In this document: one piece after another, positions 1,400-17,809 of the stretch
Layout: every line of letters begins with the position of its first letter
How positions within the stretch are numbered: the first letter of the stretch is position 1
From: an uncultured archaeon
Lineage (GTDB): Archaea; Asgardarchaeota; Thorarchaeia; Thorarchaeales; Thorarchaeaceae
Direction of reading: 5' to 3'
DNA length: 32,000 nt
NCBI GenBank assembly: GCA_964354495.1
Contig: CAYHAA010000013.1
Coordinates: 58,681 to 90,680, forward strand
Translations under genes and position numbers: made by a program
Notes under the pieces: model-generated
Database searches by the model: none
Seen by the model: the letters and a program-made list of their open reading frames with translations, nothing else
What the model was told of the DNA's origin: nothing

Positions 1400-3601
1400 C
1401 TAGAGCACCCCCATTGTTAGAAGGCCGATGATTATCAAAAGGCCAATGCCAAAGATTACCACACTTACGTAGTCATTGATTCGCCCAGTCTGTGTTTCAA
1501 GACCTATTTCCGAGGCCTCTACGCTCTTTGTTGAAACCCCCTCTGCAAAACCATCAATGACATGGTCATCAAACCAGCGTATCTTTCTTGAAAGGGTCTG
1601 TGCAGTTCCGGCAGACTTGAAGTCAATCCCATCGATTACGGGTTCATCCACCTGGACTCGCCATACATCTGCGAAGCGAAGGAGCTTGTTTACGAACCAG
1701 TAGTAGGACTCATTGATATACCATCGATGCTTCAGGAAGTTGTACAGCTTCCGGCGGACGCCATTCTCTGGAATAACGGAGTTCGGTCTCTCTGCATTCC
1801 TTATGTAAATCCAATACGCTGGTACACCACCAAGAAGGAGAGCACCAATAGTGATTGCGAATGGGATTACTCCTGGTAGTGTGAACTTGACAACAATCAT
1901 CTCTGTGAGTATCTCGACGAACAGTTCCATCGTCATGGGGCCTTCAGAAAGGACGATTGCCTGAATGAATGGAAACACAAGGAATGCAATGATTGTGAAT
2001 CCTGCAAGAATATACAGCGGAACCATCATTGCAGGACCGGGGTCATGAGGACTGCTGTGATGCTCTTCATCATGGTGTTCCGGTTCTTTACCATGAAAGA
2101 CTATTCCCATCAGCCTTATGCTGTAGAAGATGGTACTAGCTGCTGCAAACACTGCAAGACCAAACAACAGAATACCAAATGAATATTCAACTGCAAGCTC
2201 GTAGGTGTACTCAATGATGGAGTCCTTTGACCAGAAACCAGACATCGGTGGAATCCCTGCAAGTGCGAGCACACCAATCAGCATGACCCGATAAGTCCGA
2301 GGCATGCTCATTTTCAGACCGCCCATGTTGGACATATACTTCGTATGGACAGCATGGATGACTCCGCCCGCAGCAAGGAAGAGAAGGGCTTTGAAGGCAC
2401 CATGGGACACAACATGAAGCACGCCACTGAGATACGCCTGATCATAATGACCGCTCACTGCGAGAATTCCACCTGTGCCAATTGCCAGAATCATGTAGCC
2501 AAGCTGACTCAGGGTTGAGAAAGCGAGGACCTGTTTGAGTTCGTTGGACACCATACCCATTGTTGCTGTCATAAAGGCTGTAATCGCTCCGACGGTTGCA
2601 ACGATGATGAAGAATGAGATGGCCATCTCGATGCCGAATGTCTGGAGTGCTGCGAAGCCCGACTCGGTACCAGTTTCATGAGCATGAGTCGCAGTAGCAT
2701 CCACAATGGTAACCAAGAAACGAGCGGTGATGTACACACCAGCCTTCACCATGGTCGCGGCATGAATCAGTGCAGAAACAGCTGTCGGGCCGCTCATCGC
2801 CTCGGGGAGCCACACCTGGAGGGGAACCTGACCAGATTTTCCTATTGCACCCGCAAAGATGAGTATGAGTGCTGGGAGCAGGAGACCCCAGTTGCCCATC
2901 GTACCCCACCAATTGTTGATATTACTGGCGAGGTCTGTGAATAGAAAGGATCCGGTGAACGTGAAGAGTAGGAGAATGCCGCCCAGCATGAGAGCGTCGC
3001 CAATCCTAGTGACGATGAAAGCCTTCGTGCCGCAGTGAGTGTTATACTCGCCTTCTGTCTCGAATTGGAGCAATGGATTGCTCTGTTCATAACCCGTGGG
3101 GTCTTTTTCCGGTCTATTCCGTTTGTCATTCCAGAAACCGATGAGACCATAGCTGCACAATCCCATGATCTCCCATCCGATGAAAGCAATCAGTAGGGAA
3201 CCGCTTAGGACAAGTGTCAGCATTCCCCCTCCGAACAGGAGCATCAGGAAGAAGAATCTGTTTCTATCGCCTTCATTCGCCATGTACTCAGTACTATACA
3301 CATAGATGAGGAAACACAGTGTACTTGATAGAATGGCCATAATGACCGAGAGCGGGTCTAGGAGCATCTCGAAGGGAACATAGAGACCTGGGATATTGAT
3401 CCACTCATAGTGTGGCATGTGCTCTATGCCTAGGTCCCAAAGAAGAGACCAACACAACACCATAGTCATTCCCATCAAGATAGATGGCGTCCAATCACGG
3501 AGTCTTACACTGAATCTTCCCACGAGTGGCACCAACAATGATCCAGCCAGAGGGATGACGAGGATTAGGTAATAGGGTAGACCAAGTAACATCTGACTCA
3601 C
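1400..3601 (-). CDS. nuoL: Complex I-like subunit NuoL, long form; probable start ATG 3592 after a GAGGTGA SD
   Basis: FIGWEIMGLCSYGLIGFW, KAFIVTRIGD, GKSGQVPLQVWLPEAMSGPTAVSALIHAATMVKAGVY, STLSQLGYM, HGAFKALLFL, GFWSKDSI, and a C-terminal lateral helix ending QTGRINDY plus a final TM helix. Confidence 0.96.
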   Translation of the reverse strand: MSQMLLGLPYYLILVIPLAGSLLVPLVGRFSVRLRDWTPSILMGMTMVLCWSLLWDLGIEHMPHYEWINIPGLYVPFEMLLDPLSVIMAILSSTLCFLIYVYSTEYMANEGDRNRFFFLMLLFGGGMLTLVLSGSLLIAFIGWEIMGLCSYGLIGFWNDKRNRPEKDPTGYEQSNPLLQFETEGEYNTHCGTKAFIVTRIGDALMLGGILLLFTFTGSFLFTDLASNINNWWGTMGNWGLLLPALILIFAGAIGKSGQVPLQVWLPEAMSGPTAVSALIHAATMVKAGVYITARFLVTIVDATATHAHETGTESGFAALQTFGIEMAISFFIIVATVGAITAFMTATMGMVSNELKQVLAFSTLSQLGYMILAIGTGGILAVSGHYDQAYLSGVLHVVSHGAFKALLFLAAGGVIHAVHTKYMSNMGGLKMSMPRTYRVMLIGVLALAGIPPMSGFWSKDSIIEYTYELAVEYSFGILLFGLAVFAAASTIFYSIRLMGIVFHGKEPEHHDEEHHSSPHDPGPAMMVPLYILAGFTIIAFLVFPFIQAIVLSEGPMTMELFVEILTEMIVVKFTLPGVIPFAITIGALLLGGVPAYWIYIRNAERPNSVIPENGVRRKLYNFLKHRWYINESYYWFVNKLLRFADVWRVQVDEPVIDGIDFKSAGTAQTLSRKIRWFDDHVIDGFAEGVSTKSVEASEIGLETQTGRINDYVSVVIFGIGLLIIIGLLTMGVL

Positions 3602-3602
3602 C

Positions 3603-5123
3603 TCATGGACCGAAAGCGTCTGTGAACGCCGGGACTATGACATCCAGTGCCAAGCTCGGGAATATTCCAAAGATTACAATGAGAATGCCAAGGATGACCA
3701 TCGGGATGGTCATTGATCGAGGACTCTCCTTCACGTCCGCAAGAGACTCGGGATGTGGACCCAAGAACACACGCCAGAAGAATCGCAACATATAGGCAGC
3801 ACTCAGAATCGAACTTGATGCTGCAATGATGGCTAGTAGCAGAAAACTCATATTGAGCTCCGCACCGGGGATTGGAATCGCCGCTTGGAAGCCTCCCAGG
3901 AACATCATCCATTCGCTTGCAAAACCTGAGAGGGGAGGACTGCCAGCGATGCTCATCATTCCTATCGCTGCCGCGAATGCAGTGATTGGCATCTTGTTGG
4001 AGAGACCACCCATCTTCTTGATATCGCGGAGACCTGTCTGATGGATGACAGCTCCAGCGACCATGAACAGCAGTCCCTTGGAGAATGCATGATTGATGAG
4101 ATGGAACATCCCACCAGACACTCCTGCAATTGTTGCAGTGCCCAGAGCAAAGAGTACGTATCCCATCTGCGAAACAGACGAATATGCAAGGAGCCTCTTG
4201 ATGTCCACCTGGGCGAGAGCCATGAAACCGCCGTAGAAGATTGTGATAACACCAAGTGTTGCTACGTAGAGAGCAAACTGACTTGCAACCACATCCAGAG
4301 TTAACGTGCCAAATCGCACGAGCGCGTAGGCGCCTGTCTCAATCATTGCACCGGATAGGAGAACTGAGATTGGAGTAGGTGCCTCTGCATGAACCGGTGG
4401 AAGCCACCAATGGATTGGGAATACTGCCATCTTGACCAAGAACCCGGCAGCAAGTAGTATGAAGATAATCTTGAAGATCAAGTCCCCAGTAGCTCCAATG
4501 TTCGCAAGTACAAAAGAACCACCACCGTTGGCGTACAGTAGTCCGAATCCAATAAGGATACACACTGCACCGGACTGGGTATAGAGCCAGAACTTGAGAG
4601 CTGTGCGCTTTCGAGTCTCTGGAAGTCCCCAGAATAGGATGAGGAAATAGCTGGGGACAAGCATGATTTCCCAGGCAATGAAGAATTCTATCAGGTTAGT
4701 TGCAAGCGTCACCCAAATCATGCCCATGATGAAGAACAACTGGTTGGCGAAGAAGGTCGGTTTGTTCTCCGTGTGTTCAGTGTATCCTACTGCATACACC
4801 ACTGATAGGAATCCGAGCACAACGACTGCGAGGGTGATGGGGAATGCTACGGGGTCAAGGAAGAGCCCGAACGGTTCCAGAAGCGTAGACCAGACGTATG
4901 TCTCCTCTGAGAAGCCTTCCGTCAAAAGCTCGTAGAAGGGCTGTATCATTAGAGCAGAGCCTACAAGAGAAACGCCAGTGGCAATCTTTCCCGCGCTATT
5001 ACCGATTCTGTCCTTGAAGACGTAGATGAGAAGTGCTCCTATGAACATGACAGCTAGAGAGAGTGCCATGAAGGGGAATTCAGAGAGGAAGGTCTGCATT
5101 ACCTGAACCTCCTTCCACGCCAC
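3603..5123 (-). CDS. nuoM: Complex I-like antiporter subunit NuoM, first copy; probable start ATG 5099 overlapping the nuoI TAA, after a GGAGGT SD
   Basis: FFIAWEIMLVPSYFLILFWG, ALKFWLYTQSG, FLVKMAVFPIHWWLPPVHAEAPT, KRLLAYSSVSQMGY, INHAFSKGLLF, PPLSGFASE. Confidence 0.92.
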   Translation of the reverse strand: MAWKEVQVMQTFLSEFPFMALSLAVMFIGALLIYVFKDRIGNSAGKIATGVSLVGSALMIQPFYELLTEGFSEETYVWSTLLEPFGLFLDPVAFPITLAVVVLGFLSVVYAVGYTEHTENKPTFFANQLFFIMGMIWVTLATNLIEFFIAWEIMLVPSYFLILFWGLPETRKRTALKFWLYTQSGAVCILIGFGLLYANGGGSFVLANIGATGDLIFKIIFILLAAGFLVKMAVFPIHWWLPPVHAEAPTPISVLLSGAMIETGAYALVRFGTLTLDVVASQFALYVATLGVITIFYGGFMALAQVDIKRLLAYSSVSQMGYVLFALGTATIAGVSGGMFHLINHAFSKGLLFMVAGAVIHQTGLRDIKKMGGLSNKMPITAFAAAIGMMSIAGSPPLSGFASEWMMFLGGFQAAIPIPGAELNMSFLLLAIIAASSSILSAAYMLRFFWRVFLGPHPESLADVKESPRSMTIPMVILGILIVIFGIFPSLALDVIVPAFTDAFGP

Positions 5124-5530
5124 TCTAACGGTTTCCTCTCTAGGGTTGTGATCTTATCGGGCCCGTAGATCAGGTCTCTTCTGTCGCCCTCACTAATGTC
5201 GACGACTGGAGTGTGGAATAGTGCATTGAATCGACAGGCCTCAACACAGTGCCCACAGAAGATGCAGCGAGTGTAGTCAAAGTAGAGGGCTGCATCTTTC
5301 TCGTACATTCTATCGTCCTTATCCATTCGTATCGCAACGACTGGACATGACCGAACACACTGCGCGCATGCTGTGCAATTCTGTCGGACATGGATGTGCC
5401 TTCCACGCGTCCTCTCTGGATAGATTCTGTCCTCAAATGGGTAGAAGTAGGTGAAGGGTCTCATGAAGACCTGCCTGAATGTGTGTTTCAGAATCTTGAA
5501 GATGTCACCCAGTACGCTGAAGAAACCCAT
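5099..5530 (-). CDS. nuoI: Complex I-like subunit NuoI, 2x[4Fe-4S]
   Basis: YPFEDRIYPERTRGRH, CTACAQCVRSCP, CIFCGHCVEAC; operon position. Confidence 0.95.
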   Translation of the reverse strand: MGFFSVLGDIFKILKHTFRQVFMRPFTYFYPFEDRIYPERTRGRHIHVRQNCTACAQCVRSCPVVAIRMDKDDRMYEKDAALYFDYTRCIFCGHCVEACRFNALFHTPVVDISEGDRRDLIYGPDKITTLERKPLEWRGRRFR

Positions 5531-5533
5531 TGT

Positions 5534-6700
5534 TTATGGACCTCCTAAGGGTAGCAATGCTGCCAGTCCAGGAAGATAGACTATCGCGAGCATTGCAAAT
5601 ATGACATTCAGTAGCGCAAGAGGAAGCAGATACCTCCAACAGTAGTGAACAATCTGATCTTGCCTAAGTCGTTGGAATGACGAACTGACAAGAACGAAGA
5701 AGAAGAAGGTGATGATGAACTTGATAATGAAGTTCACTGCACCAGGGAGGAAGGGCAGACCAACAGGCCCTCCCAAAAAGAGAGCGACGATTATTGCGGA
5801 GTAGAGCATCTGCTCTGCAAACTCTGCAAAGTAAGTGAGAGTGAAGTAGATACCAGTAAACTCAGTCCTCCAGCCAAAGATTATCTCAGAGTCTGCGACG
5901 GGTGCGTCAAAGGGGAACACACCAACTGATGCAATGGCGGCAATTAGGAATGTTGCAAGGTTAACAGGCAATACAACTGCAAACCAGACAGAAGTCTGTG
6001 CTTGGGCGATGCCCATGAGACTCAGAGAACCCGCAAGCATGGCAGGTCCGGCAGAAGAAACAATCATTGGAATCTCTGCAGCGAATTGATTGTTTGCCGC
6101 TCGGAATCCTCCTATGAGCGAGTACTTGCAGCCGCTGACCCAACCTGCAAGCAATGATACAACAGGAACCGCTGTCAGAAAGGCAAACACCAGGACAAGA
6201 CTCACAGAGAGGTCTGAAATATACCAGAAGTCAAAGTCCCAAGGTATGAAACAGAAAGGCAATAGTACAACCACAAGAAGGAGACAGGGTAGGAATCTGA
6301 ACATCCAGCGTTTTGCATTATCAGGGATGATAGTCTCCTTTGCTATGAGCTTGATAGCATCAGCAAACAACTGAAGTCCACCATACTTGCCGATATGAAG
6401 TGGTCCTCGTCGGTCCTGAATGCGACCCCAGAGTTTTCGTGTGAACCACACCGCCCATATGAGGGTGAGAACGACAAAGATGAGACCCGGAAACAAGACA
6501 GCTCGAAACAAGAACATGAAGTTCGCTGGTGAGAACACCATTGCCCAGAGCCATTCGACGATGCCCCAGGCCCAGTAGAAGACACCCAGGATGAGATTGA
6601 TTATCCATTGCAGTACGCCATAGATCCAATCGGGAATCCCCGCAAGCCAGGTAAAGAAATCGAACTGCAACATCACACCTCCATTCATCGGTCCCACCAT
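5534..6700 (-). CDS. nuoH: Complex I-like subunit NuoH; probable start ATG 6673 after a GGAGGTG SD
   Basis: RKLWGRIQDRRGP, GGLQLFADAIKLIAKE, PFDAPVADSEIIFGWRTEFTG, FQRLRQDQ; polytopic membrane protein. Confidence 0.95.
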   Translation of the reverse strand: MVGPMNGGVMLQFDFFTWLAGIPDWIYGVLQWIINLILGVFYWAWGIVEWLWAMVFSPANFMFLFRAVLFPGLIFVVLTLIWAVWFTRKLWGRIQDRRGPLHIGKYGGLQLFADAIKLIAKETIIPDNAKRWMFRFLPCLLLVVVLLPFCFIPWDFDFWYISDLSVSLVLVFAFLTAVPVVSLLAGWVSGCKYSLIGGFRAANNQFAAEIPMIVSSAGPAMLAGSLSLMGIAQAQTSVWFAVVLPVNLATFLIAAIASVGVFPFDAPVADSEIIFGWRTEFTGIYFTLTYFAEFAEQMLYSAIIVALFLGGPVGLPFLPGAVNFIIKFIITFFFFVLVSSSFQRLRQDQIVHYCWRYLLPLALLNVIFAMLAIVYLPGLAALLPLGGP

Positions 6701-7821
6701 CCAGGATACGGGTCCAAGCTTCCGAATATCACAATGAAGTCTGCAAACTTCGCGCCAGGGACTAAGTCCTTCAAGGCGTAGTAAGATGCAAAACAGGGTC
6801 CACGTATCTTTGCGCGATATGCACTCTGTGCCTTATCTTGAGTCTTGAGCCACAGTGATGTGATGCCTCGTGTTCCTTCTACGCGACCATATGCCTCTCC
6901 TGCAGGAAGTCTGTTCACTTTGGCACGAGCTTTGGGATCGATAATAGGACCTTCGGGTATCTGTGGTAATAGCTGCTTAATGATCTCTACAGAGGTCTCT
7001 GCCTCCTTGAATCTTTGCTCCATCCTGTCCAGAGCATCACTCTCTCCGGGATGATCTGGATTCTCAGTTATGGGTACTTCCCAATCACACATATTGTAGG
7101 CAAGATTCGGGTCGGGAGCATCTTTCCTGAGGTCCATAGGGATTCCGCATGCCTTAATCGGAGGCCCGCTCAGTCCCCATTTGAGACCCTGTCTTGCAGT
7201 GTATTGCCCTATGCCCTTGGTTCTCGCTCTGAAAGTAGGACTTCCCATCTGCATATCTCGGAACTTGGGCAGTCTGTCCTCAAACCTCTTGACGGCTCTA
7301 TTGATTTGTTTCAAGACCTTCTCATTAAAGTCGAACCTTGTTCCACCAGGAGTTGAGAACGATACAGTGTGTCGCGAACCTGTTAACTCTTCAAAGGCAT
7401 CAAGGGTATACTCTCGGTCGACCCAAGGCCAGAGAGCCATTGTAAAGAATCCAAGCTCTGCATTGAACTGTCCCCACCAGAATTGTATACTGTGCAGACG
7501 GGACAGCTCCATCATGATGGTCCTCATGACCTTCGCTCGTTCTGGCACCTCAAGCTCTGCAATCTTCTCAACTGCAGCAATAAAGGGATACTCAGCAAGA
7601 AATGCTTCAAGCATGCACATTCTTTCCATAACCAGGGATCCTTGCCTGAAGGTCCTGTACTCGAGGACCTTCTCTGCAGAACGGTGAAAGTACCCGGCAT
7701 TTGGGTCACATTTGACAATGTAGTCGCCGACCAAGGTCAGTTTTGTCGCCCATCCATGAGCAGAAACATGTTGGGGTCCGAACCAGACGTCTATGGCCTC
7801 ATCAAGAATGTTAGGGCTCAC
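6685..7821 (-). CDS. nuoD: Complex I-like subunit NuoD (no NiFe ligands)
   Basis: WFGPQHVSAHG, GYFHRSAEK, TGSRH...PGG, GEAYGRVEGTRG, YRAKIRGP, C-terminal SLDPYPGWWDR; neither hydrogenase CxxC pair is present. Confidence 0.93.
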   Translation of the reverse strand: MSPNILDEAIDVWFGPQHVSAHGWATKLTLVGDYIVKCDPNAGYFHRSAEKVLEYRTFRQGSLVMERMCMLEAFLAEYPFIAAVEKIAELEVPERAKVMRTIMMELSRLHSIQFWWGQFNAELGFFTMALWPWVDREYTLDAFEELTGSRHTVSFSTPGGTRFDFNEKVLKQINRAVKRFEDRLPKFRDMQMGSPTFRARTKGIGQYTARQGLKWGLSGPPIKACGIPMDLRKDAPDPNLAYNMCDWEVPITENPDHPGESDALDRMEQRFKEAETSVEIIKQLLPQIPEGPIIDPKARAKVNRLPAGEAYGRVEGTRGITSLWLKTQDKAQSAYRAKIRGPCFASYYALKDLVPGAKFADFIVIFGSLDPYPGWWDR

Positions 7822-8366
7822 TGGTCTGCCCCTCCGGTTTTTGTCGGTGTTTTTGGTGGAGTGAGGCCTGTTTTATCCAAGCGGCTTCTGTCTGTCTGGA
7901 ATCTCTTGCGAAGAGGAAATGCGCCCGCCAGTTCATCCGGCAGAAGGAGCAGTCGAGGATCAGGATGACTCTTGAATTCAATCCCGAACATCTCTCGTGT
8001 TTCACGTTCGTGCCATTCAAAGCCGGGGAAGATGTCGCAGGTACTCTCGATCTCAGGTCTCTCCCCTTCCAGCGACACTCTTAGCTGAAGCAGCATCCGA
8101 TTTGAGTGAGACCAAATGATGTAGATGAGCTCGTATTTGTCGTTTTCAAGGTCGATTCCAAAGAGTGACTCAGGAAGAGCATCATGCACTTCTTCATCAA
8201 TCATCGTCACGACCTGTCGAATCTTATTGGCAGGCACCAGGAGCTCGACCTGATTCGCGCCTAAAAGCCTTGAATTAACATCAGGATGCTTGTTGATGAG
8301 TTTTCTCGCGAGCGTTGAAGCATCAATGGTGGAGGGTTGCGACAATTCATCATCCCTCCATCTCAA
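7818..8366 (-). CDS. nuoC: Complex I-like subunit NuoC; probable start TTG 8345 after a GGAGGG SD
   Basis: IFPGFEWHERETREMFGIEFKSHPDPRLLLLP...FPLRKRF; stop overlaps the nuoD GTG start. Confidence 0.94.
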   Translation of the reverse strand: MRWRDDELSQPSTIDASTLARKLINKHPDVNSRLLGANQVELLVPANKIRQVVTMIDEEVHDALPESLFGIDLENDKYELIYIIWSHSNRMLLQLRVSLEGERPEIESTCDIFPGFEWHERETREMFGIEFKSHPDPRLLLLPDELAGAFPLRKRFQTDRSRLDKTGLTPPKTPTKTGGADQ

Positions 8367-8658
8367 TTGGCTTGCCTAAGTCAACCGAATGATATCGACG
8401 GTTATACATCAACATCAGGACCAGTGCAAGTGCAGTATGTGCAGCAGAGACAGAGATGACAAGCATGATTAGACCCTGACCAGTGAAGTTGAATATCGGA
8501 TTGTAAAGAGAGATGGCAACAAGGGCGATATTCGCTCCATTGGCCATTATCTCAGCACCTATCAGGATTCTAATGAGGTTCCTCTTCACCATCATCCCGT
8601 ATCCACCCAAACCTATCATCATAAAGGAGAGAACCAAATACCAAGTGAGCGGGATCAT
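8350..8658 (-). CDS. nuoK: Complex I-like subunit NuoK
   Basis: 102 aa, 3 TM helices; KRNLIRILIGAEIMANGANIALVA, GQGLIMLVISVSAA. Confidence 0.93.
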   Translation of the reverse strand: MIPLTWYLVLSFMMIGLGGYGMMVKRNLIRILIGAEIMANGANIALVAISLYNPIFNFTGQGLIMLVISVSAAHTALALVLMLMYNRRYHSVDLGKPIEMEG

Positions 8659-9302
8659 CAGGCATCAACCTCCTTTGATTCATCGATAGTTCGCACATCG
8701 TCAACGATGGTTCCCTCACCTTCGGTAGAGCCTGCCTCTCCTCCTGAAGCTCCAATAACAACTCCGAGTTGTTCGGCCTTGTCGATTTTCAGAAGAGCGA
8801 TTGCACCCACAAGAGCTGTGAGGATGATCAGGGCGACCATCTGCACGTAGATACCATTCTCGAACCACAACCAGCGCGCAAGTTCATTCAGATTTTGCGA
8901 GATACTGACGAATGCCTCGTTGAACGACTCAGCCCATGGGAAGATAATCGCAAGAAAGCCAGTAAGTACTGTTACAACTGCTGAAATGAGAAGACCAATA
9001 TGACGAACTCTAGGGGACGCGAATTTCTCTAGAGTCGAGTCTTGGGCTCTTGGTAATATGAGAACTGCAAAGATAATCAAAGCGCTGATTCCGCCGGTGT
9101 ACACGGCAATCTGCATTCCAGCAATGAAGGGCGCTTCAAGGAGAAGGAAGAAACCAGCAACAAAGGATGCCATAAAACCAAAGAAGAATGCGGCATAGAC
9201 AATCTCCTTATGCTCCAAGGCCAAATATGCAAGCACGAGGACCATGCCTGCCAAGATTAGGAACTCGATCTGCTCAAGCAATGCAGGATCAAAACCTTGC
9301 AT
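8658..9302 (-). CDS. nuoJ: Complex I-like subunit NuoJ
   Basis: IVYAAFF, LLLEAPFIAGMQIAVYTGGI, ILTALVGAIALL. Confidence 0.93.
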   Translation of the reverse strand: MQGFDPALLEQIEFLILAGMVLVLAYLALEHKEIVYAAFFFGFMASFVAGFFLLLEAPFIAGMQIAVYTGGISALIIFAVLILPRAQDSTLEKFASPRVRHIGLLISAVVTVLTGFLAIIFPWAESFNEAFVSISQNLNELARWLWFENGIYVQMVALIILTALVGAIALLKIDKAEQLGVVIGASGGEAGSTEGEGTIVDDVRTIDESKEVDA

Positions 9303-9304
9303 CT

Positions 9305-9802
9305 CTATCGACCTCCCGCAGCCGACTGCTCTTGCTCTCTCTCAGCCTTCATCTTCCTGTATAGCTCAACAGTCTCTCTCCCATCGAGGAATGTGTGTGG
9401 GATCATCTTCAAGGAAAAACCAATTCCGCCCATGATTATGAAAATGAAGAGGATGACCTGCCATACAGCCTCGTATTTCGTAGCGTCAGCCCATAGAATG
9501 GTCGAAGAAGAAAGGAGCCAGAGAAATGCGCCCATCACGTCGACAACTACGAAGAGGACTGTGTATACGAAGTAATTGTACGGATAAGAAATGCGCGAGG
9601 TGCCTATTGGTTCCTCACCACATTCGTAGGTCGAGGTCTTCTCGGAGTTCTGGAGTACATGAGGTCGTAGCACCCAAGATGCTAGTAGCATTAGAATGAC
9701 GAGAACTATTGCAAGTAGCGCCCAGACTATGACAGGGAAGAAATCCAAGAACAATCTGCTGGTCTGTATCATTCTTTGAAACCATCCTCTTGAGAGACTC
9801 AA
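9305..9802 (-). CDS. nuoA: Complex I-like subunit NuoA; start uncertain (TTG 9802 or ATG 9772)
   Basis: EKTSTYECGEEPIG loop, YFVYTVLFVVVD, three TM helices; first gene of the operon. Confidence 0.92.
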   Translation of the reverse strand: MSLSRGWFQRMIQTSRLFLDFFPVIVWALLAIVLVILMLLASWVLRPHVLQNSEKTSTYECGEEPIGTSRISYPYNYFVYTVLFVVVDVMGAFLWLLSSSTILWADATKYEAVWQVILFIFIIMGGIGFSLKMIPHTFLDGRETVELYRKMKAEREQEQSAAGGR

Positions 9803-10366: not shown

Positions 10367-10900
10367 CTACTCATTTGGACCAGTAGATGTAGGATCAATA
10401 GCATCAGCAGGTTTCTCGGGTTTTGTTTCAGTCTTAGGTGCCGCTTCTTCCGCAGGTTTTGGCGCACCACCATAATGGAGTGACCTTACATCCAACATGC
10501 CTGGAGAGTGACTCTCTTCGCGAGTATGCATCACCGAGAGACCTCCAGCAGTCAGTACTGAACCTCCAAGGCCCCAGGCCGAGAGATACAGTGTAGTCCC
10601 AACTGCAGGGAGAGCATTCACAAATTCATCAACAAAGATAACGAAGAAGAATCCAACAACAATCGATAGTGCCATCATTAGGCTCTTTCCTTTACCTCTC
10701 GCAGGTCGCAAATACCCAACTAGCAGGAAGATCATCAATAGGGAAATCCCGCTTAGCAGAGCAAAGGCGCTTCCAATGACCAGCACCGATTCCGGCATCA
10801 GAAAGCCAAGATAGATGAAATTGAAGATGAACGATGACAAAATGACTATGCCTAGCCAGAGCATGCAAAACGGGTCGCTATCTTGTCGAATCGACATCAC
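10367..10900 (-). CDS. Hypothetical 4-TM membrane protein with a Pro/Ala/Glu/Lys-rich tail, coupled to the FAD-NuoB fusion gene
   Basis: Start overlaps the fusion's TGA (GTGATG at 10895-10900); four hydrophobic segments; tail APKPAEEAAPKTETKPEKPA. Confidence 0.8.
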   Translation of the reverse strand: MMSIRQDSDPFCMLWLGIVILSSFIFNFIYLGFLMPESVLVIGSAFALLSGISLLMIFLLVGYLRPARGKGKSLMMALSIVVGFFFVIFVDEFVNALPAVGTTLYLSAWGLGGSVLTAGGLSVMHTREESHSPGMLDVRSLHYGGAPKPAEEAAPKTETKPEKPADAIDPTSTGPNE

Positions 10901-12837
10901 TGTATCATCCCCATCGCATCCTGGTTCTCATATCTCCTTTGCCAGTGAGTCGTGCCAGCCCGTATCTTATTCTGAAGAATCAGATGTGCTCGAATGAAAT
11001 CTGCTGGCTTCGGAGGACATCCAGGCAGGTAGACGTCGACAGGTACTACCTTGTCAGGCGGTGTCATCAGGCTGTATCCCTCCCAGAAGAGGCCTCCTGA
11101 AGCAACGCATTGACCAAAGGCAATCACATATTTGGGCTCAGGCATCTGCTCGTAAATCCTCCTGAGCCGCGGTGCCATCTTCTTGGTGAGCGAACCCGAG
11201 ATCCACAGAACGTCGGTCTGTCTCGGACCAAACAGGGGTAGCATGCCAAATCGCTCAAAGTCCCATCGAGGAGCTATTCCTGCAGCACCATCCACCATGC
11301 AACACCCAATACCATACTGCATTGGCCAGGGACTATATGCCCTTCCCCATCTGAGTACCCACTTCAGCGGCGGTACATTCTGCAACCATTTCAGCAAAAT
11401 GGGAGCAATCCGACCCCAACCGTTTCTGAACAGATCGAAGAAGATCCACATGAAGTATTTCCCTATTCTCAAAATAAATGGAAGCCAGTAGGCGAATATC
11501 TTCCCGGGATTCGAGATCTCGTTCCTGTCCCATTGGAGTTTCGCTGCTCGAATTCGGGACAGTCGTTCCTTTCCAAAGTATTGATACGCGTAGTTTGCAA
11601 ACCAAATTCCTGTGGAGTGCACATGCCCTCCGTGACGCTGTGCAATTTTGAATATGACAAAGCTCTGTGACCACGAGAGCATGTAGAAGTGCCTTCGCTC
11701 ATCTTCAAGGAAGTAGCCCATCATAGTTACTCCGGTCTTTGAGGTGACGTAGCCGTCGATTCCAGCTCTCGCAGAGGCTTGTTCAAACTGGAAGTCATCA
11801 AGAATTGCAACGAGATTCTCGAGAGGGGCAAAAGCTTGACCGACTACTAGGGTTGGCCCTCTCTTCTTAATCTTCATTGGATAGTAGCGTAGCTGCCATT
11901 CATGTTCTGCAAAATCATCATCATAGATGCGCCCTCGATACAGTTCAGTGACTTCGCGGACAACTCCTAACCCCTCTTCAATCTCTTCCTCGTTGCCCTC
12001 ATACGCAATCATTAACGAACAATGATTGGCAGGTATCGGGAATGGCTTCTTGCCCTCCCAACTGGCCTTTTTGAGGTCAGTATACTTTGACTCTTCGAAT
12101 AATATCGTGTATGGGAGTGGGCCATCTTCGAGTATTTTCTCAATTGCAAGGACCATTTGGTAGTTTTCCTCAAAACTGGAAACAATTACCTTCATCGGTG
12201 TGAGAGGTTTGATCTTAAGAGTGGCTTTGGTGATGATACCCAGAATTCCCTCAGTGTCACAGAAGAGGCCAAAATCCTTTGTCTTGACTGTTTTTCCAGT
12301 TGGCAGAACCACTTCGAGCTCGACTATGTTCTCATTGATCTTCCCGTACTTCAGCGAACCAATGCCATCGCCGCCCTGGGCAATCCAGCCGCCCACAGTC
12401 GCTGAGATGCCAGATGATGGATAGCATCGTATATCCAGACCCTTCCTGTTCAACGCAAACTGAAGATTTGCCCAAGAGATTCCTGGTTCAACCGTGACGG
12501 TGAGATTCTCACTCTCAACTTCAAGAATCCTGTCCATTCGACGCATATCAACAATGATTCCTCCTTTTCGGGGTATAGCGCCGCCATATCCTGAGGTTCC
12601 TGCCGCTCTGGGCACAAGGGGGATTTTGTGTTTTCGCGCAATCTCATAGAGCGCCTGAACCTCTTCAGGAGTCAAGGGTTGAACAAGGGCATCGGGTTTT
12701 GTGTTCATGAGCCAACCAACCTGCTTCGGAAGAGAACCAACATCTTGTCCAAACAGAATCAGCTCATGCTTCGCAGTAATCAAGCGGTCTCCAAAAATTT
12801 TGCCTAGTTCTTCAATCAGCTTTTGATTAAGGACCAT
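10897..12837 (-). CDS. Fusion protein: FAD-linked oxidoreductase (GlcD/D-LDH, FAD_binding_4 + FAD-oxidase_C type) plus NuoB
   Basis: N-terminal part: PDALVQP, LVPRAAGTSGYGGAIP, IIVDMRRMDRILEV, VTVEPGI, SATVGGWIAQGGDGIGSLKYG, TEGILGIITKATLK, ending ISNPGKIF (~11494). C-terminal part: RWGRAYSPWP, GIGCC, PRQTDVLWISGSLTKKMAPRLRRIYEQMPEPKYVIAFGQCVASGG, VPVDVYLPGCPP. Single uninterrupted 646-aa frame. Confidence 0.93.
   Translation of the reverse strand: MVLNQKLIEELGKIFGDRLITAKHELILFGQDVGSLPKQVGWLMNTKPDALVQPLTPEEVQALYEIARKHKIPLVPRAAGTSGYGGAIPRKGGIIVDMRRMDRILEVESENLTVTVEPGISWANLQFALNRKGLDIRCYPSSGISATVGGWIAQGGDGIGSLKYGKINENIVELEVVLPTGKTVKTKDFGLFCDTEGILGIITKATLKIKPLTPMKVIVSSFEENYQMVLAIEKILEDGPLPYTILFEESKYTDLKKASWEGKKPFPIPANHCSLMIAYEGNEEEIEEGLGVVREVTELYRGRIYDDDFAEHEWQLRYYPMKIKKRGPTLVVGQAFAPLENLVAILDDFQFEQASARAGIDGYVTSKTGVTMMGYFLEDERRHFYMLSWSQSFVIFKIAQRHGGHVHSTGIWFANYAYQYFGKERLSRIRAAKLQWDRNEISNPGKIFAYWLPFILRIGKYFMWIFFDLFRNGWGRIAPILLKWLQNVPPLKWVLRWGRAYSPWPMQYGIGCCMVDGAAGIAPRWDFERFGMLPLFGPRQTDVLWISGSLTKKMAPRLRRIYEQMPEPKYVIAFGQCVASGGLFWEGYSLMTPPDKVVPVDVYLPGCPPKPADFIRAHLILQNKIRAGTTHWQRRYENQDAMGMIQ
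10960..11370 (-). other. nuoB: NuoB domain (N2 [4Fe-4S] subunit) within the fusion gene
   Basis: Tandem Cys-Cys at 11299-11304 (C512/C513), GQC..SGG and PGCPP together give all four N2 ligands; the YEQMPEPKYVIA signature is present. Confidence 0.93.
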
Positions 12838-13041: not shown

Positions 13042-14274
13042 GTGACGATGGACTTTCCAACACTGAATGAATATGACCTTCAGAAGTACGCATTCACTTG
13101 CGCGCAATGTGGTTTTTGTCAGGTAGGTCATGGTGCTTGTCCCACCTACAAGGTGAAACGGCGGGACACATATTCTGGTAAGGGTAAGATGCTCTTGACC
13201 CGGGCATTGATGCAAGGACGAATTAGACCGTCCGAGGGTCTGGAAGGTCTAAGGGATGGGATCTTTGGCTGTACTCTATGTGGAGGTTGTGAAGAAGTCT
13301 GCCAAGTGGATATTCCGTTTGTGAAGCTCTATCAAGTGATGCGCTCGGAGTTCATGAAGCGGAACATGTGGCCAGAGAAGCTGCAGGTAGCAAGGGACAC
13401 AGTCTTGAAGAACTTCAATATTCAGGGCCAGGCACAAATGGATAGGATAGAGGGATGGTCCTATTGGACTCCTAACGAGGATGAATTGCTGGGCAAACAA
13501 GGGACTCCGGCAAAGACTGCCTTCTTCATTGGATGTGCATCTTCGTTTCGAGGCGTTTCGATTCAAGCCACAATTGCCATGACACTGATCTTGGACAAGA
13601 TTGGAGCAGAGTATACCGTGCTGGGTGAAGAGGAATACTGCTGCGGCGCTCCTCTTATCATGTCGGGAGATTTCGACGGAGCGAGAGTCCTCGCTGAACA
13701 CAATATTCAGAAGTATAGAGAACTTGGCGTTGAAACCATAATAACCAATTGTCCGGGCTGCTATAAGATGTGGGCTCATGAATATCATGAGTTCTTAGGT
13801 ATTGATCATGGTTTTGAGATTCGCTATGGCTACGAATACCTTGCTGACCTTCTTGATAAAGGAAGACTGACAGGTTTCAATACTCCTCTCAATGCCACAG
13901 TAACGTTCCATGATGGTTGCGACGCAGGTAGGAATACGGGATTTTATGAAGAACCAAGAAAAGTGCTTGAGAACATTCCGGGTGTGATATTTGAAGAGCT
14001 TCCGCATAACAGAGCAAACTGCTATTGTTGCGGTTCTGGTGGCGTACTAAGAGCGATTGATGCTGAATTCGCCAATCAAATCAATAGGCTCAAGGTAGAA
14101 GATATCGAAGCCACGAATGCTCAAATCGTAGCATCTGGTTGTCCATCTTGTGTAGATTTCATGCACTCTCAACTTCCACAGGCAGGTTCGAGTAAGACTG
14201 TGAAAGATCTTGCTGTTCTTGTCGCTCAGGCTCTTGGTCTATCATGGGACGGACTCACTGAGATTTACGGCTGA
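13042..14274 (+). CDS. GlcF/HdrD-like Fe-S oxidoreductase (2x[4Fe-4S] plus two CCG domains)
   Basis: CAQCGFC...CP, CTLCGGCEEVC, FFIGC, EEYCCG, TNCPGC, FHDGC, CYCCGSGG, SGCPSC. Confidence 0.92.
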   Translation: MTMDFPTLNEYDLQKYAFTCAQCGFCQVGHGACPTYKVKRRDTYSGKGKMLLTRALMQGRIRPSEGLEGLRDGIFGCTLCGGCEEVCQVDIPFVKLYQVMRSEFMKRNMWPEKLQVARDTVLKNFNIQGQAQMDRIEGWSYWTPNEDELLGKQGTPAKTAFFIGCASSFRGVSIQATIAMTLILDKIGAEYTVLGEEEYCCGAPLIMSGDFDGARVLAEHNIQKYRELGVETIITNCPGCYKMWAHEYHEFLGIDHGFEIRYGYEYLADLLDKGRLTGFNTPLNATVTFHDGCDAGRNTGFYEEPRKVLENIPGVIFEELPHNRANCYCCGSGGVLRAIDAEFANQINRLKVEDIEATNAQIVASGCPSCVDFMHSQLPQAGSSKTVKDLAVLVAQALGLSWDGLTEIYG

Positions 14275-14379: not shown

Positions 14380-15432
14380 TCAGCTGTTGAGAGATGCTGA
14401 AGCTGCTGCTTTCGCTTTGCGTTCTGATTGATAGTAGAACACAAGGGACATCGCAAGACATAGAGCGCCCCCGACAAAGACGTAGAGAAGAGGTGATGCC
14501 AATCCAATCAACAAGTAAGACAGTGATAGAAAGAGCCCCGTGAACAAGTGATTCGTGACCGTCGCCGCACATGCGGGTAACATCTGAAGCGATTGATCAT
14601 AGTGTGCTAGTACGTGCTTGCTGGCCATCACTGCGATAGGCACAGTAGAAAGCCCAACTACTGTATACCAGTTTGTCAGGCCGAAAAAGATGGGTAGGAG
14701 TATTGAGAGATATAGGGCCACCATCAAGACGACGTACCCTTTCGAGGCACGTTTTCGGCCGAGACGCACTACTGCAGTCAGTTTTCCAACAGACTTGTCA
14801 GCCTCATAGTCGGGAAACTCATTGATATATAGAACAGCTGTGATTAGAATCGCGACTGGAATAGATGGGAAGACTGCTTCCCAAGCAAGCACCTGAGTTT
14901 GAACGAAGTAGGCTCCGAGAGTCATAAGAACGCCAAAATTGAGCCCAATGAAGACCTCCCCAATGCCTCTATTCACTAATCTAAAAGGCGGAGCAGTATA
15001 GAAGAAACCCGAGCACACACCAATGACTCCAAGGATTAGGACTTCTATGCCTCTTGTGTAGGCAAGATACAGGCCAATGCCGCCCCCAAGAGAGAAGAAT
15101 ACCATTGACTCTAGGAAGACCTCTCCCGGAGACATCAGCCCCCTTTGGATCATCCTGCTTCCCCCGGTGAAAGGACGCACATACTCCACATTGATATCGT
15201 CAGTCCCACTTCTGTGGTCGAAATAGTCGTTGGCAACATTAGACCCGATGTGGATGAACACACCTGCAGCTAGGGTCAAAAGAAAGATGTCGAGAAGGAA
15301 TGTGCCTGTTGATGCCCAAGCCACGCACGTTCCAATGACTACAGGTACAATGGCACCCGTCAGGAAGGGGGCACGCATTTCGGCCAGCCAGGTTCTGACT
15401 CTCGAAGGTCTTACATCCATCAAATCAATCAC
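14380..15432 (-). CDS. menA: 1,4-dihydroxy-2-naphthoate polyprenyltransferase (MenA/UbiA family)
   Basis: NVANDYFDHRSGTDD, RPFTGGSRMIQ, FFYTAPPFRL..RGIGE, YINEFPDYEADKSVGKLT..VRLG. Confidence 0.88.
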   Translation of the reverse strand: MIDLMDVRPSRVRTWLAEMRAPFLTGAIVPVVIGTCVAWASTGTFLLDIFLLTLAAGVFIHIGSNVANDYFDHRSGTDDINVEYVRPFTGGSRMIQRGLMSPGEVFLESMVFFSLGGGIGLYLAYTRGIEVLILGVIGVCSGFFYTAPPFRLVNRGIGEVFIGLNFGVLMTLGAYFVQTQVLAWEAVFPSIPVAILITAVLYINEFPDYEADKSVGKLTAVVRLGRKRASKGYVVLMVALYLSILLPIFFGLTNWYTVVGLSTVPIAVMASKHVLAHYDQSLQMLPACAATVTNHLFTGLFLSLSYLLIGLASPLLYVFVGGALCLAMSLVFYYQSERKAKAAASASLNS

Positions 15433-15554
15433 GACTTATGAACTTGAAATCCTTTTGAGTTTAAGAAAAGACTTACTATAGGATGCGATTGATGCAAAAA
15501 CGACATTGCTTTAAGGCGCATACAGTCTGAACCAAAAGTTGAGGAGAATATCTG

Positions 15555-16592
15555 ATGTCAGAACGCCCATCCGTCCGCCATGAGTATGGACTAAACACAT
15601 CAGAACCTTGGCCATCTGATACTTCGTGTTTTCTAGAGAATGAGAAGATAAGGACAAGAATCAACCTCATTAATGAAGAGATCAAACGTTGCCTATTGGA
15701 TGAAGATGGAGAACCGAAACAACTCTATGAATCAGTCCGTAGCCTAGTCCTTGCAGGTGGCAAGAGACTAAGGTCCCTTTTGCTGATACTGAGTTGCGAA
15801 GCAGTGGGTGGGGCTCTCGTGGACGCATTGCCTTTTGCAGTCGCCACAGAGTTCATACAGACCGCTAGCTTGATCCATGATGATATCATTGATGAAGATG
15901 ATTTGCGTCGTGGAGTTGAAACCATGCACAAGAAGTATGGAGAGAAGATGGCAATAATCTCCGGAGACCTACTTGTCGGCCTGGCAATCAAGTTGATTGG
16001 AGAGAGAGCAACTCCCCAACTTCTATCCAGTGTTGCCACAGCTGGTATCCGAATGTGTGAAGGCGAAGCTGCCGACCTCTTGATGAGTCAAAACAGAGCA
16101 CATTCTTACACGACAAAGGCAGCGCTTGATATTATTAGAATGAAGACAGTCGCGTTCATGACATACGCTGCGAAGGTAGGAGCGGTTCTGGGGCATGCGA
16201 CTGAGGAGCAATCGGAAGTTCTAACCAAATATGCCGAAGAACTTGGTTACTCATTCCAAATTCGTGACGATATACTCGATATAATCGCCACTCAAAATGA
16301 AACAGGAGAGACAGGTTTGTCCGATTTGAAAGGTAATGTGAGTAATTTCGTTCTTGCGCATGCCATAGAGAGCTGTTCTCCGAAAGGAAGGAAGCAACTC
16401 ATTCAGAATTTGGACGAGGGTGATGTAGACTCTGCCTTTGAACATATCAAGGAAATGAAGTCTATTGAATACTCCACTGAGACTGCCAAGGAGTTCGTGG
16501 AATCTGCCAAGGACAGAATTCGCGGATCCAACTTCTCAAATGAAGAGTTGCTGATGCTCCTCGCAGATTTCGCTGTGAAACGGCAATACTAA
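15555..16592 (+). CDS. Trans-polyprenyl diphosphate synthase, probably longer than C20; true start may be downstream
   Basis: GGKRLR, first Asp-rich motif TASLIHDDIIDEDDLRRG, GEAADL, KT, second motif FQIRDDILD. Confidence 0.93.
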   Translation: MSERPSVRHEYGLNTSEPWPSDTSCFLENEKIRTRINLINEEIKRCLLDEDGEPKQLYESVRSLVLAGGKRLRSLLLILSCEAVGGALVDALPFAVATEFIQTASLIHDDIIDEDDLRRGVETMHKKYGEKMAIISGDLLVGLAIKLIGERATPQLLSSVATAGIRMCEGEAADLLMSQNRAHSYTTKAALDIIRMKTVAFMTYAAKVGAVLGHATEEQSEVLTKYAEELGYSFQIRDDILDIIATQNETGETGLSDLKGNVSNFVLAHAIESCSPKGRKQLIQNLDEGDVDSAFEHIKEMKSIEYSTETAKEFVESAKDRIRGSNFSNEELLMLLADFAVKRQY

Positions 16593-16603
16593 TTCAGCTC
16601 ACA

Positions 16604-17809
16604 CTACATGAACTGGTTCAGCAGCCTGACAAAGGTCTTCGCCGCCATATCCACAGGAAGTGGCAGGCGGCACCGAATAAGTGGCTCAAGAAATCTGACT
16701 CCAGCTAGCCGCATACATATGTCAGTAACCGCGTCTGATGGCATAACTAGATCTGCAACTCTAAGGACTCTTAGTGCAGTCACTAACTCATGACCAAACT
16801 CAGCTCTCCATAGTTCTTCGTAGGTCGACAGAGGTTCGTTCTCTGTCAGGTACCTAACAACAGATTCGCCTGCGATACGGCCTCCGCATAATGCAGTCGG
16901 AATTCCTCCACCATTTGATGCCATCACATGCCCAGCTGCATCCCCGACTAGCAATGCATTTTGATGCCACGTTTGGTGAAGGGGACCGCCCATAGGGATT
17001 ATTGCACCTATTCTTCGAATGACCTTCGCGCTCTCGACCCTGTGTGCTAGGAGAGAAAACACAAACCGTTCTAGATACTTCTTGAGAGGGGTTGCATCAC
17101 TACCGACACTTCGTCTCATACCAAAACCGATGTTGGCAAGCCCTTCACCCCTAGGAATGACCCAAGCATAACCGCCTGGTGCTATCCTCTCACCAAAATA
17201 CATCTCTACCACAGACGGTTCCACATCGAAATCATTCATTACATATTGGAGAGCTGGGCTGAGGTCTGACTCGGGGTGAATGAATCTCGGTCCCATCGAG
17301 CGAGCCACAATGGATCTAGGTCCATCGGCTCCTATGATAGCCTTAGCAGTCATTTTGTGTGTCGTACTCTGAGTTCTGACAGTCAGTTCATTCTTGCCTT
17401 GTCGTTTCAATACCGTTGAATGAAGCTGAAGCTCAGCACCCGCATCTATGGCGTTCTGCGCAAGTTGTTTGTCCAATCTCGACCGGTCAACAATGTTGGC
17501 TTCAAAGGGAAACTCAAATGTACTGCCATGTGGTGAAATCAGGCGAATGAATTTCGTCCTGTTCGTGATGAATTCCCTTGGCACATCGACAGCTCTAGGC
17601 ATCATTTTGGAGCGGGGAAACAGTCTTCGTGTTTCTGACTGCGTGGGTATGATCTCGCCACACTGGACTGGCGTGCCCGCTATAGACCTTCGGTCTAGAA
17701 TGAGTGTTCGTAGATTGCTCCTAGCGACTACCTGAGCTGCAGAAGACCCTGCTGGTCCAGCTCCAACTACTGCAACATCATAAGTTTGACTCACGAGTAG
17801 CCACTCCAT
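16604..17809 (-). CDS. Geranylgeranyl/prenyl reductase family FAD oxidoreductase
   Basis: DVAVVGAGPAGS, PVQCGE, IIGADG..S, APGGYAWVIP, ANIGFG, LLVGDAAGHV...GGGI. Confidence 0.92.
   Translation of the reverse strand: MEWLLVSQTYDVAVVGAGPAGSSAAQVVARSNLRTLILDRRSIAGTPVQCGEIIPTQSETRRLFPRSKMMPRAVDVPREFITNRTKFIRLISPHGSTFEFPFEANIVDRSRLDKQLAQNAIDAGAELQLHSTVLKRQGKNELTVRTQSTTHKMTAKAIIGADGPRSIVARSMGPRFIHPESDLSPALQYVMNDFDVEPSVVEMYFGERIAPGGYAWVIPRGEGLANIGFGMRRSVGSDATPLKKYLERFVFSLLAHRVESAKVIRRIGAIIPMGGPLHQTWHQNALLVGDAAGHVMASNGGGIPTALCGGRIAGESVVRYLTENEPLSTYEELWRAEFGHELVTALRVLRVADLVMPSDAVTDICMRLAGVRFLEPLIRCRLPLPVDMAAKTFVRLLNQFM

Follow-up and report, generated by a model that had tools for sequence, protein, structure and literature searches.

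Background

Complex I variants with a second NuoM-type subunit and a lengthened NuoL, known as 2M complex I, are already described (PMC7300363, PMC6606698 and PMC9040806, citing Chadwick et al. 2018), and the extra ion per cycle attributed to them is a published hypothesis. We analysed a stretch of 32,000 nucleotides from an uncultured archaeon of the Thorarchaeia (assembly GCA_964354495.1, contig CAYHAA010000013.1, positions 58,681 to 90,680; this whole stretch is called the window, and coordinates without a locus label are counted from its first letter). Its minus strand carries a nuo cluster in the order nuoA, J, K, C, D, H, I, M', nuoL, nuoM, followed by nuoN beyond the left window edge; M' stands for the gene of an M-type antiporter-like subunit upstream of nuoL. 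The genome comprises 3.3 Mb at 97.7% completeness, and the closest homologues of its NuoL are labelled Candidatus Thorarchaeota. A previous inspection of the letters alone, here called the sequence-only reading, had noticed a repeated motif in NuoL and had proposed that two NuoM copies sit in one complex and that the lateral helix of NuoL was extended by local duplication. The analysis given below favours, at a probability of roughly three in four, a Thorarchaeial complex I with four antiporter-like subunits, whose NuoL strap became one 26-residue module longer to match, by an old tandem duplication. Judged from gene content and sequence, the locus adds an archaeal (Thorarchaeia) example to the known 2M type of complex I; it does not represent a new kind of machine.

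The length of the lateral helix (HL) is expressed throughout as the HL span, a residue count that begins at the W of the WY-x-(D/N)E landmark and ends at the G of QTG, and TM denotes a transmembrane helix. According to PMC7300363, which deals with heterotrophic marine Thaumarchaeota, the archaeal 2M enzymes are 'clade 2' of Chadwick et al. 2018, and members without NuoEFG are on record. The archaeal 2M clusters that we inspected (L031, Nitrososphaerales; L030, Bathyarchaeota) resemble the window in the order M'-L-M-N, in an HL with 26 additional residues (span 81), in the lack of NuoEFG from the cluster, and in that M' and M belong to the same two M-type lineages. They differ in a NuoL that is only ~37% identical to that of the window and in the TM8 position of M', which is Gly there and Glu in the window, whereas the window is set apart by a NuoB that is fused to a flavoprotein. 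The 2M enzymes of Nitrospira (clade 3; PMC6606698, PMC9040806; L035, L098) likewise have four antiporter-like subunits, a long NuoL (HL span 79) and two subunits with Glu in TM12, but their order is L-M-M-N, both their M genes belong to the classical NuoM clade and their NuoL belongs to the bacterial branch, whereas the extra subunit of the window is encoded upstream of L and comes from another lineage.

Other relatives share only part of these features. Long-helix operons with one nuoM (Complex_I_1 and Complex_I_2 of Ca. Manganitrophaceae, PMC9040806, and those of many bacterial phyla) show the same doubling of a 26-residue module, often as a far clearer repeat, but contain only three pump genes where the window has a fourth. 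Complex_I_3 of Ca. Manganitrophaceae (PMC9040806) also has a strap helix that a 26-residue insert has made long enough for additional pumps, but there the strap is on an MrpD-like subunit and the pumps number five, as compared to four pumps and a NuoL strap in the window. Canonical complex I (E. coli NuoL, T. thermophilus Nqo12, cyanobacterial NdhF; PDB 7p62, 4he8, 6hum) shares the NuoL fold, the upstream landmark, one D-x-x-V-x-D-G module (lacking in E. coli), QTG and TM16, and differs in having one module fewer in HL (span of 51-56 as compared to 80 in the window) and three pumps. The literature search yielded no paper linking Thorarchaeota with NuoL or NuoM.

Four antiporter-like genes in one row

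A search of the whole genome with PF00361 gave 6 matches, which correspond to exactly 4 genes, all within the row M'-L-M-N. The second of these, nuoL (1400..3601; 733 codons from GTG, listed in the databases with 730 amino acids from the ATG at codon 4), matches TIGR01974 NDH_I_L with 451 bits (cut-off 407.5) and contains both PF00361 (Proton_antipo_M) and PF00662 (Proton_antipo_N). It is flanked by two NuoM-type genes, as the sequence-only reading had it: M' upstream (P0002; 3603..5123, 506 amino acids) and nuoM of the classical type downstream (P0003; 2..1399, cut by the window edge, 523 amino acids in full as read from L002), which match TIGR01972 NDH_I_M with 309 and 381 bits, respectively, both over the cut-off of 263.8 and both with Glu in TM12. 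That reading had further advised to look for nuoN past the left edge of the window, and there a 502-amino-acid gene abuts nuoM (P0004; L003:1312-2820, minus strand); its best family is NuoN TIGR01770, at 299 bits and thus under the cut-off of 332.6, and it has Lys in TM12. The presence of nuoN rules out that the second M merely replaces N.

The functional residues were read by alignment with NuoL, M and N of E. coli. Along M'-L-M-N the TM12 residue is E-K-E-K, and Glu at this position is a mark of NuoM that is absent from NuoL and NuoN. The M' protein keeps the TM5 Glu, the TM7 Lys and the TM12 Glu, and has Glu in place of the TM8 Lys; across family-level relatives it is 69-72% identical and the TM5, TM7 and TM12 residues are retained. 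The TM8 site itself (codon 4338-4340, context A-M-I-E-T-G) is a conserved Glu in the Thorarchaeial four-gene clusters and Gly in the same lineage of other archaea.

In a tree of 87 antiporter-like subunits all members with Glu in TM12 form one clade (98*). Within it, the Thorarchaeial M falls into the classical NuoM clade (100*), alongside bacterial NuoM and the gene that other archaeal clusters of four or five such genes have between L and N, and the Thorarchaeial M' falls into a separate archaeal lineage (support 89). The members of the latter lineage adjoin L, mostly on its upstream side; most of them have lost the TM8 Lys in favour of Gly or Glu, and in the three-gene clusters of Nitrososphaerota (ammonia-oxidiser type) they are the sole M-type subunit. 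A recent copy of nuoM is ruled out as the source of M', considering that M' and M are 31% identical, which is no closer than M' to L (30%; M' to N is 29%), and that they belong to separate lineages; the wording 'NuoM copies' of the sequence-only reading therefore had to be given up. The alignments and the tree identify M' and M as anciently diverged paralogues that represent two old M-type lineages. Relative to the three-gene clusters in Nitrososphaerota the added pump is the classical M, and relative to bacteria it is M'.

NuoL is longer by exactly one module

The structure of NuoL was modelled using AlphaFold2 (AF2) with a 119-sequence alignment (mean predicted local distance difference test score, pLDDT, 87). 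The top structural matches of the model are ordinary NuoL/ND5/NdhF chains of ~600-720 residues (Foldseek E 1e-25 to 5e-30). HL comprises residues 615-701 (1499..1759; AF2 helices 615-624 and 626-701), and its pLDDT drops from ~88 to ~53 toward the C-terminal end, as is expected for a strap that is modelled without its partner subunits. Near its start lies the upstream landmark W627-Y-I-N-E631 (1709..1723), aligned by HMMER to the WY-x-DE landmark of cyanobacterial NdhF; then follow module A (residues 645-670, 1592..1669), which holds motif 1 (D652..G658, 1628-1648), and module B (residues 671-696, 1514..1591), which holds motif 2 (D678..G684, 1550-1570). HL and the anchor helix TM16 (residues 707-729, 1415..1483; an AF2 helix) are separated by a break at 702-706 in the model (pLDDT <50 at 700-706), which contains the hinge Q704-T-G706 (1484..1492; Q704 and T705 conserved in ≥ 90%, G706 invariant).

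To place this helix among its homologues we used NuoL as query against 1.84 billion cluster representatives; 142 full-length matches were then aligned at their C-termini. The HL spans are trimodal (+0, +26, +52) with almost nothing between the classes: 55 representatives have a span of 51-58 (mostly 54-56), 69 a span of 79-92 (67 of these 79-85) and 8 a span of 105-108. The NuoL of the window has 80 residues, as compared to mostly 54-56 in ordinary NuoL and 51 in E. coli, and so carries a net insertion; an insertion of about this size is also what the sequence-only reading had given for known 2M variants, in agreement with the lengthened NuoL of the 2M type in the citing literature. The short proteins contain a single motif, which follows the landmark by ~25 residues and precedes QTG by 26. 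The sequence-only reading, too, had given canonical NuoL one such motif before QTG; the module is lacking in E. coli. In the NuoL of the window, motif 1 keeps the canonical distance to the landmark and motif 2 keeps the canonical distance to QTG (26 residues from its D to Q704, the same spacing as in short-helix NuoL), and therefore the net gain is exactly one 26-residue module.

The motif pair and the origin of the module

The two motifs read D652-E-P-V-I-D-G658 (1648-1628) and D678-D-H-V-I-D-G684 (1570-1550), are 26 codons apart and are followed by Q704-T-G706. The VIDG codons on the minus strand are GTA ATC GAT GGG (1639-1628) and GTC ATT GAT GGT (1561-1550), 78 nucleotides apart, precisely as had been read from the letters. 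Both motifs, 26 residues apart, occur in 117 of the 120 Thorarchaeial homologues, down to ~60% identity, and D652, D657, G658, D678, D683 and G684 are each conserved in at least 90% of the 119-sequence alignment. When profiles of units A and B were made from the Thorarchaeial clade, hhalign matched them in register along 8 columns (E 5e-5), with a score of 19.46 that lies above all of 200 column-shuffled controls, if narrowly (maximum 19.28). The pair is real biology, as its conservation at this spacing across the Thorarchaeial homologues shows.

The relatives tell more about how the pair arose. An internal repeat at an offset of 24-28 residues (best 20-residue self-match unreached by 500 shuffles) was found in 41 of the 69 '+26' proteins, as compared to 1 of the 55 short ones. 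In the strongest case (P0144) 17 of 20 residues and 61 of 81 nucleotides are identical. When the profiles of module A and module B were built from 67 proteins, they matched each other in register over 27 columns (hhalign probability 97%, E 2e-11) and both matched the single module of the short proteins equally well; as a control, a profile of the upstream HL segment matched none of the modules (probability ~2%). In the tree of the NuoL core the NuoL of the window falls into an Asgard long-HL group that includes a Heimdall-type protein and one labelled Asgardarchaeia, all members being '+26' except P0158, a long-branched short protein in the same unresolved fork. Two members of this Asgard clade (P0129 and P0145) preserve a clearer repeat of the full module (9 of 20 residues identical, P 0.006 and 0.002, respectively; Thorarchaeial proteins 6 of 20).

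The most economical reading, supported by these comparisons, is an old tandem duplication that would have decayed here to the motif; the support comes from the repeats in relatives and from the family profiles, not from this sequence. The proposal of a local duplication can therefore be retained as to origin, whereas calling it 'still visible' overstated the case, with only a 7-8-residue motif remaining here. A tree of the NuoL core, with HL excluded, implies at least 27 changes of helix class, of which the starred branches force at least 8-9, and such repeated changes fit the 'convergent evolution' in the published title of the 2M study. A duplication origin of the insert was not found in the literature searched, which covers Chadwick et al. 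2018 through citing papers only; a preprint on Manganitrophaceae mentions a 26 amino acid insert without the word 'duplication'.

Two loci from this comparison are described here in more detail. The NuoL at L011:5539-7641 contains a near-perfect 27-residue tandem repeat in HL (17 of 20 residues, 61 of 81 nucleotides, nearly perfect core) in which a recent in-frame duplication is seen directly; its cluster has only three antiporter-like genes, which adjoin genes of an A-type ATPase, and no fourth pump is in view. At L008:10001-15115 a bacterial NuoL with an HL span of 106 contains three phased copies of W-F-D-x-x-V-V-D-G-L-V-N; its operon is an ordinary L-M-N one and continues directly into an F-type ATP synthase operon.

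Pump-gene number and strap length in related clusters

The arrangement of the window recurs within its class. In at least 26 of 41 Thorarchaeia genomes one contig carries frames for M', M and N spaced as in this cluster; where a NuoL frame is listed between them, it has ~730-770 amino acids. All four relatives whose clusters were fetched have M'-L-M-N and a long helix, and three of the four have both motifs; the fourth (L019), from the most distant genome, has a 690-amino-acid NuoL with a degenerate first motif and a helix that was judged long by eye. Three-gene clusters of Thorarchaeia, designated here as L-X-Y (NuoL of 648-675 amino acids) and X-L-Y (675-677 amino acids), have a short helix. 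The same covariation is seen in Nitrososphaerota, where closely related NuoL proteins have an HL span of 55 in M'-L-N clusters (L028, L032) and 81 in an M'-L-M-N cluster (L031), and in Geothermarchaeales, where a cluster with five antiporter-like genes (L010) has a span of 107 and the sister NuoL from Pelearchaeum (L029) one of 55.

For a broader count we used 80 named loci from species-representative genomes, 55 of which had enough flank for the genes to be counted (by open reading frame and tblastn calls). Among the 39 short-helix loci none had four pump genes, 38 had three and one had two; among the 16 loci with a '+26' helix four had four pump genes (Bathyarchaeota, Nitrososphaerales and two Nitrospiraceae) and 12 had three. 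Four genes thus occur in 4/16 long-helix as compared to 0/39 short-helix loci (Fisher P 0.005, kinship ignored). A fourth pump goes with a long strap, but a long strap is by itself no sign of a fourth pump. As a general rule, the inference from a long helix to a fourth pump gene, whether inside the operon or outside it, was rejected on the basis of the 12 three-gene loci and of whole-genome searches. Since long-helix loci with three pumps exist, strap length alone is unfit for calling a hidden pump, and we would warn against such use.

Some of these clusters deserve a note of their own. Many Thorarchaeia genomes carry a second, complex-I-like or hydrogenase-like, three-gene cluster with a short-helix NuoL (L012-L016, L020, L021, L023). 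The X-L-Y clusters contain two subunits with Glu in TM12 and no N-type subunit, and some genera of Thorarchaeia have only a three-gene cluster, without the four-pump one. The row at L010:4144-11522 consists of two M-type genes, NuoL, a classical M and an N-like gene truncated where the contig stops. This row may encode a five-pump complex I whose NuoL strap is two modules longer; the only five-pump case in the literature consulted for comparison (PMC9040806) uses MrpD-like subunits, unlike this NuoL strap.

Proposed mechanism and alternative explanations

That all four antiporter-like subunits belong to one complex is an inference, as are their arrangement along the membrane arm and the transport of a fifth ion per cycle. 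HL and TM16 would act as a strap that clamps the row of antiporter-like subunits, and the extra 26-residue module, which if helical adds ~39 Å, i.e. roughly the width of one antiporter-like subunit, would enable the longer strap to pass one more subunit while TM16 still docks at the proximal end. The extra module would be a copy of the canonical 'fD-x-x-V-(I/V)-D-G-x-V-N...' module, generated by an in-frame tandem duplication of 78 nucleotides, and this duplication would be old in the lineage and common to other Asgard relatives, Heimdall-type ones included; only the 7-8-residue motif would be left of it here. The length of HL matters, because in E. coli the insertion of 6-7 residues into HL between L and M reduces pumping (abstract of PMC3274701). 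By our own estimate, the transport of five ions for every two electrons would take ~0.4 V if the membrane potential is ~150 mV, and a ferredoxin-like donor to menaquinone, or reverse operation, would fit better than an NADH-like donor.

Several results weigh against this reading, and it was compared to three others in their light. The first group of results concerns the strap as such. In 12 of the 16 long-HL loci the pump genes are a plain L-M-N, the contigs P0144, P0134 and P0196 (+26) and P0239 (+52) have three pump genes each, and of five long-helix three-gene genomes that were searched whole three contain only two L-M-N triplets each and no spare M gene; these three are bacteria with a long-helix NuoL (G041, L045; G045, L046; G044, L072). 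Complex_I_1 and Complex_I_2 of Ca. Manganitrophaceae show the same mismatch (Yu et al., PMC9040806). As long helices occur without a fourth pump gene, the match in length seen here may be partly inherited and not causal. Taken to its end, this would mean that the long helix was merely inherited, is unrelated to the fourth subunit and serves another role, M' being accommodated otherwise. We hold this to be unlikely in view of the fact that all four-gene clusters seen have a long helix and no short-helix locus has four genes, that pump-gene number and helix class change together within Thorarchaeia and again within Nitrososphaerota, and that the five-gene cluster has +52. A subunit M' that stands outside this enzyme, as a leftover or as part of another transporter, with an ordinary L-M-N complex beside it, is very improbable: nothing speaks for it directly, save that the missing TM8 lysine might suggest a degenerate pump, and the genome offers no other antiporter-like gene or cluster to which M' could belong, its gene overlaps nuoI and abuts nuoL, the protein is as conserved among family-level relatives as described above, key residues included, and clusters of the ammonia-oxidiser type have no M-type subunit other than one from its lineage. 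No four-pump complex structure was among the structural matches of NuoL, and the trees were made by FastTree only; both points reduce the weight of the preferred reading.

The second group of results concerns the repeat. In this protein alone it amounts to a phased motif pair of 7-8 residues that is not significant by itself: ungapped self-matching at offset 26 gives at best 7 residues (BLOSUM62 score 26), a score that the shuffled region reaches at some offset in 11% of trials (P ~0.03 with offsets limited to 24-28), the whole modules A and B share only 5 of 26 residues (BLOSUM62 score -3) and 29 of 78 nucleotides, and 2.6% of the other in-frame windows of nuoL match unit A as well or better. 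Taken alone, this sequence may therefore also be read as motif convergence, in which an unrelated sequence was inserted and a second D-x-x-V-I-D-G arose in it, each copy making the same kind of contact; the lack of relatedness outside the motif and the restriction of the alignment of the Thorarchaeial profiles to 8 columns speak for such an origin. In view of the relatives we judge it quite unlikely. One motif suffices for an ordinary HL that passes two subunits, and convergence can thus not be explained by a need for one motif per subunit; relatives show identity along the whole module, also in the DNA; the profiles of the family agree along 27 columns, against a negative control; closer Asgard relatives retain more of the repeat; and insert sizes are quantised at 26. 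A longer strap that was gained by old tandem duplication and matches a fourth pump remains the reading that we prefer.

If it is correct, the locus offers a clean case of 'longer strap, extra pump' with clusters from the same class as natural controls, and extends the four-pump design to Thorarchaeia. The comparative work gives a simple origin for the strap extension, i.e. one module that is tandem-duplicated in quantised steps, and yields as side results the two-lineage M pair of archaea, the +26/+52 steps and a strap rule that holds one way. Five ions per two electrons, if realised, would need a large redox span or reverse running and would bear on energy conservation in Asgard archaea, a point that is sharpened by the absence of NuoEFG and by the flavoprotein-NuoB fusion described below. 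A wider picture can be drawn, which we offer tentatively and consider doubtful as a whole: archaeal four- and five-pump complex I would be built from two ancient M-type lineages (an M' without the TM8 Lys and a classical NuoM), the strap would gain a 26-residue module by tandem duplication per added pump (+26 for four, +52 for five), and in Thorarchaeia a flavoprotein-NuoB head would power this arm, so that the entire assembly would be a previously undescribed high-stoichiometry or reverse-running Asgard enzyme.

Organisation of the cluster and neighbouring genes

The genes of the cluster are tightly packed: the start of M' overlaps nuoI by 25 nucleotides, its stop lies 1 nucleotide before the GTG of nuoL, and the ATG of nuoM directly follows the nuoL stop. 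The rest of the cluster (5099..9802, minus strand) was assigned by Pfam: nuoI (5099-5530, Fer4), nuoH (5534-6700, NADHdh), nuoD (6685-7821, Complex1_49kDa), nuoC (7818-8366, Complex1_30kDa), nuoK (8350-8658, Oxidored_q2), nuoJ (8658-9302, Oxidored_q3) and nuoA (9305-9802, Oxidored_q4). NuoEFG are not encoded in the cluster. The NuoB-domain gene of the cluster lies upstream of nuoA (10897-12837, minus strand) and encodes a 646-amino-acid fusion of a flavoprotein (FAD_binding_4 / FAD-oxidase_C) with a C-terminal NuoB (Oxidored_q6) domain; 2 more Oxidored_q6 matches were found in the genome, on other contigs. The fusion gene is adjoined by a gene for a CCG/Fer4_8 protein (13042-14274, plus strand). 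Next to the cluster, at 14380-17809, are genes for a UbiA-family prenyltransferase, a polyprenyl synthase and a geranylgeranyl-reductase-like flavoprotein, which possibly serve quinone supply.

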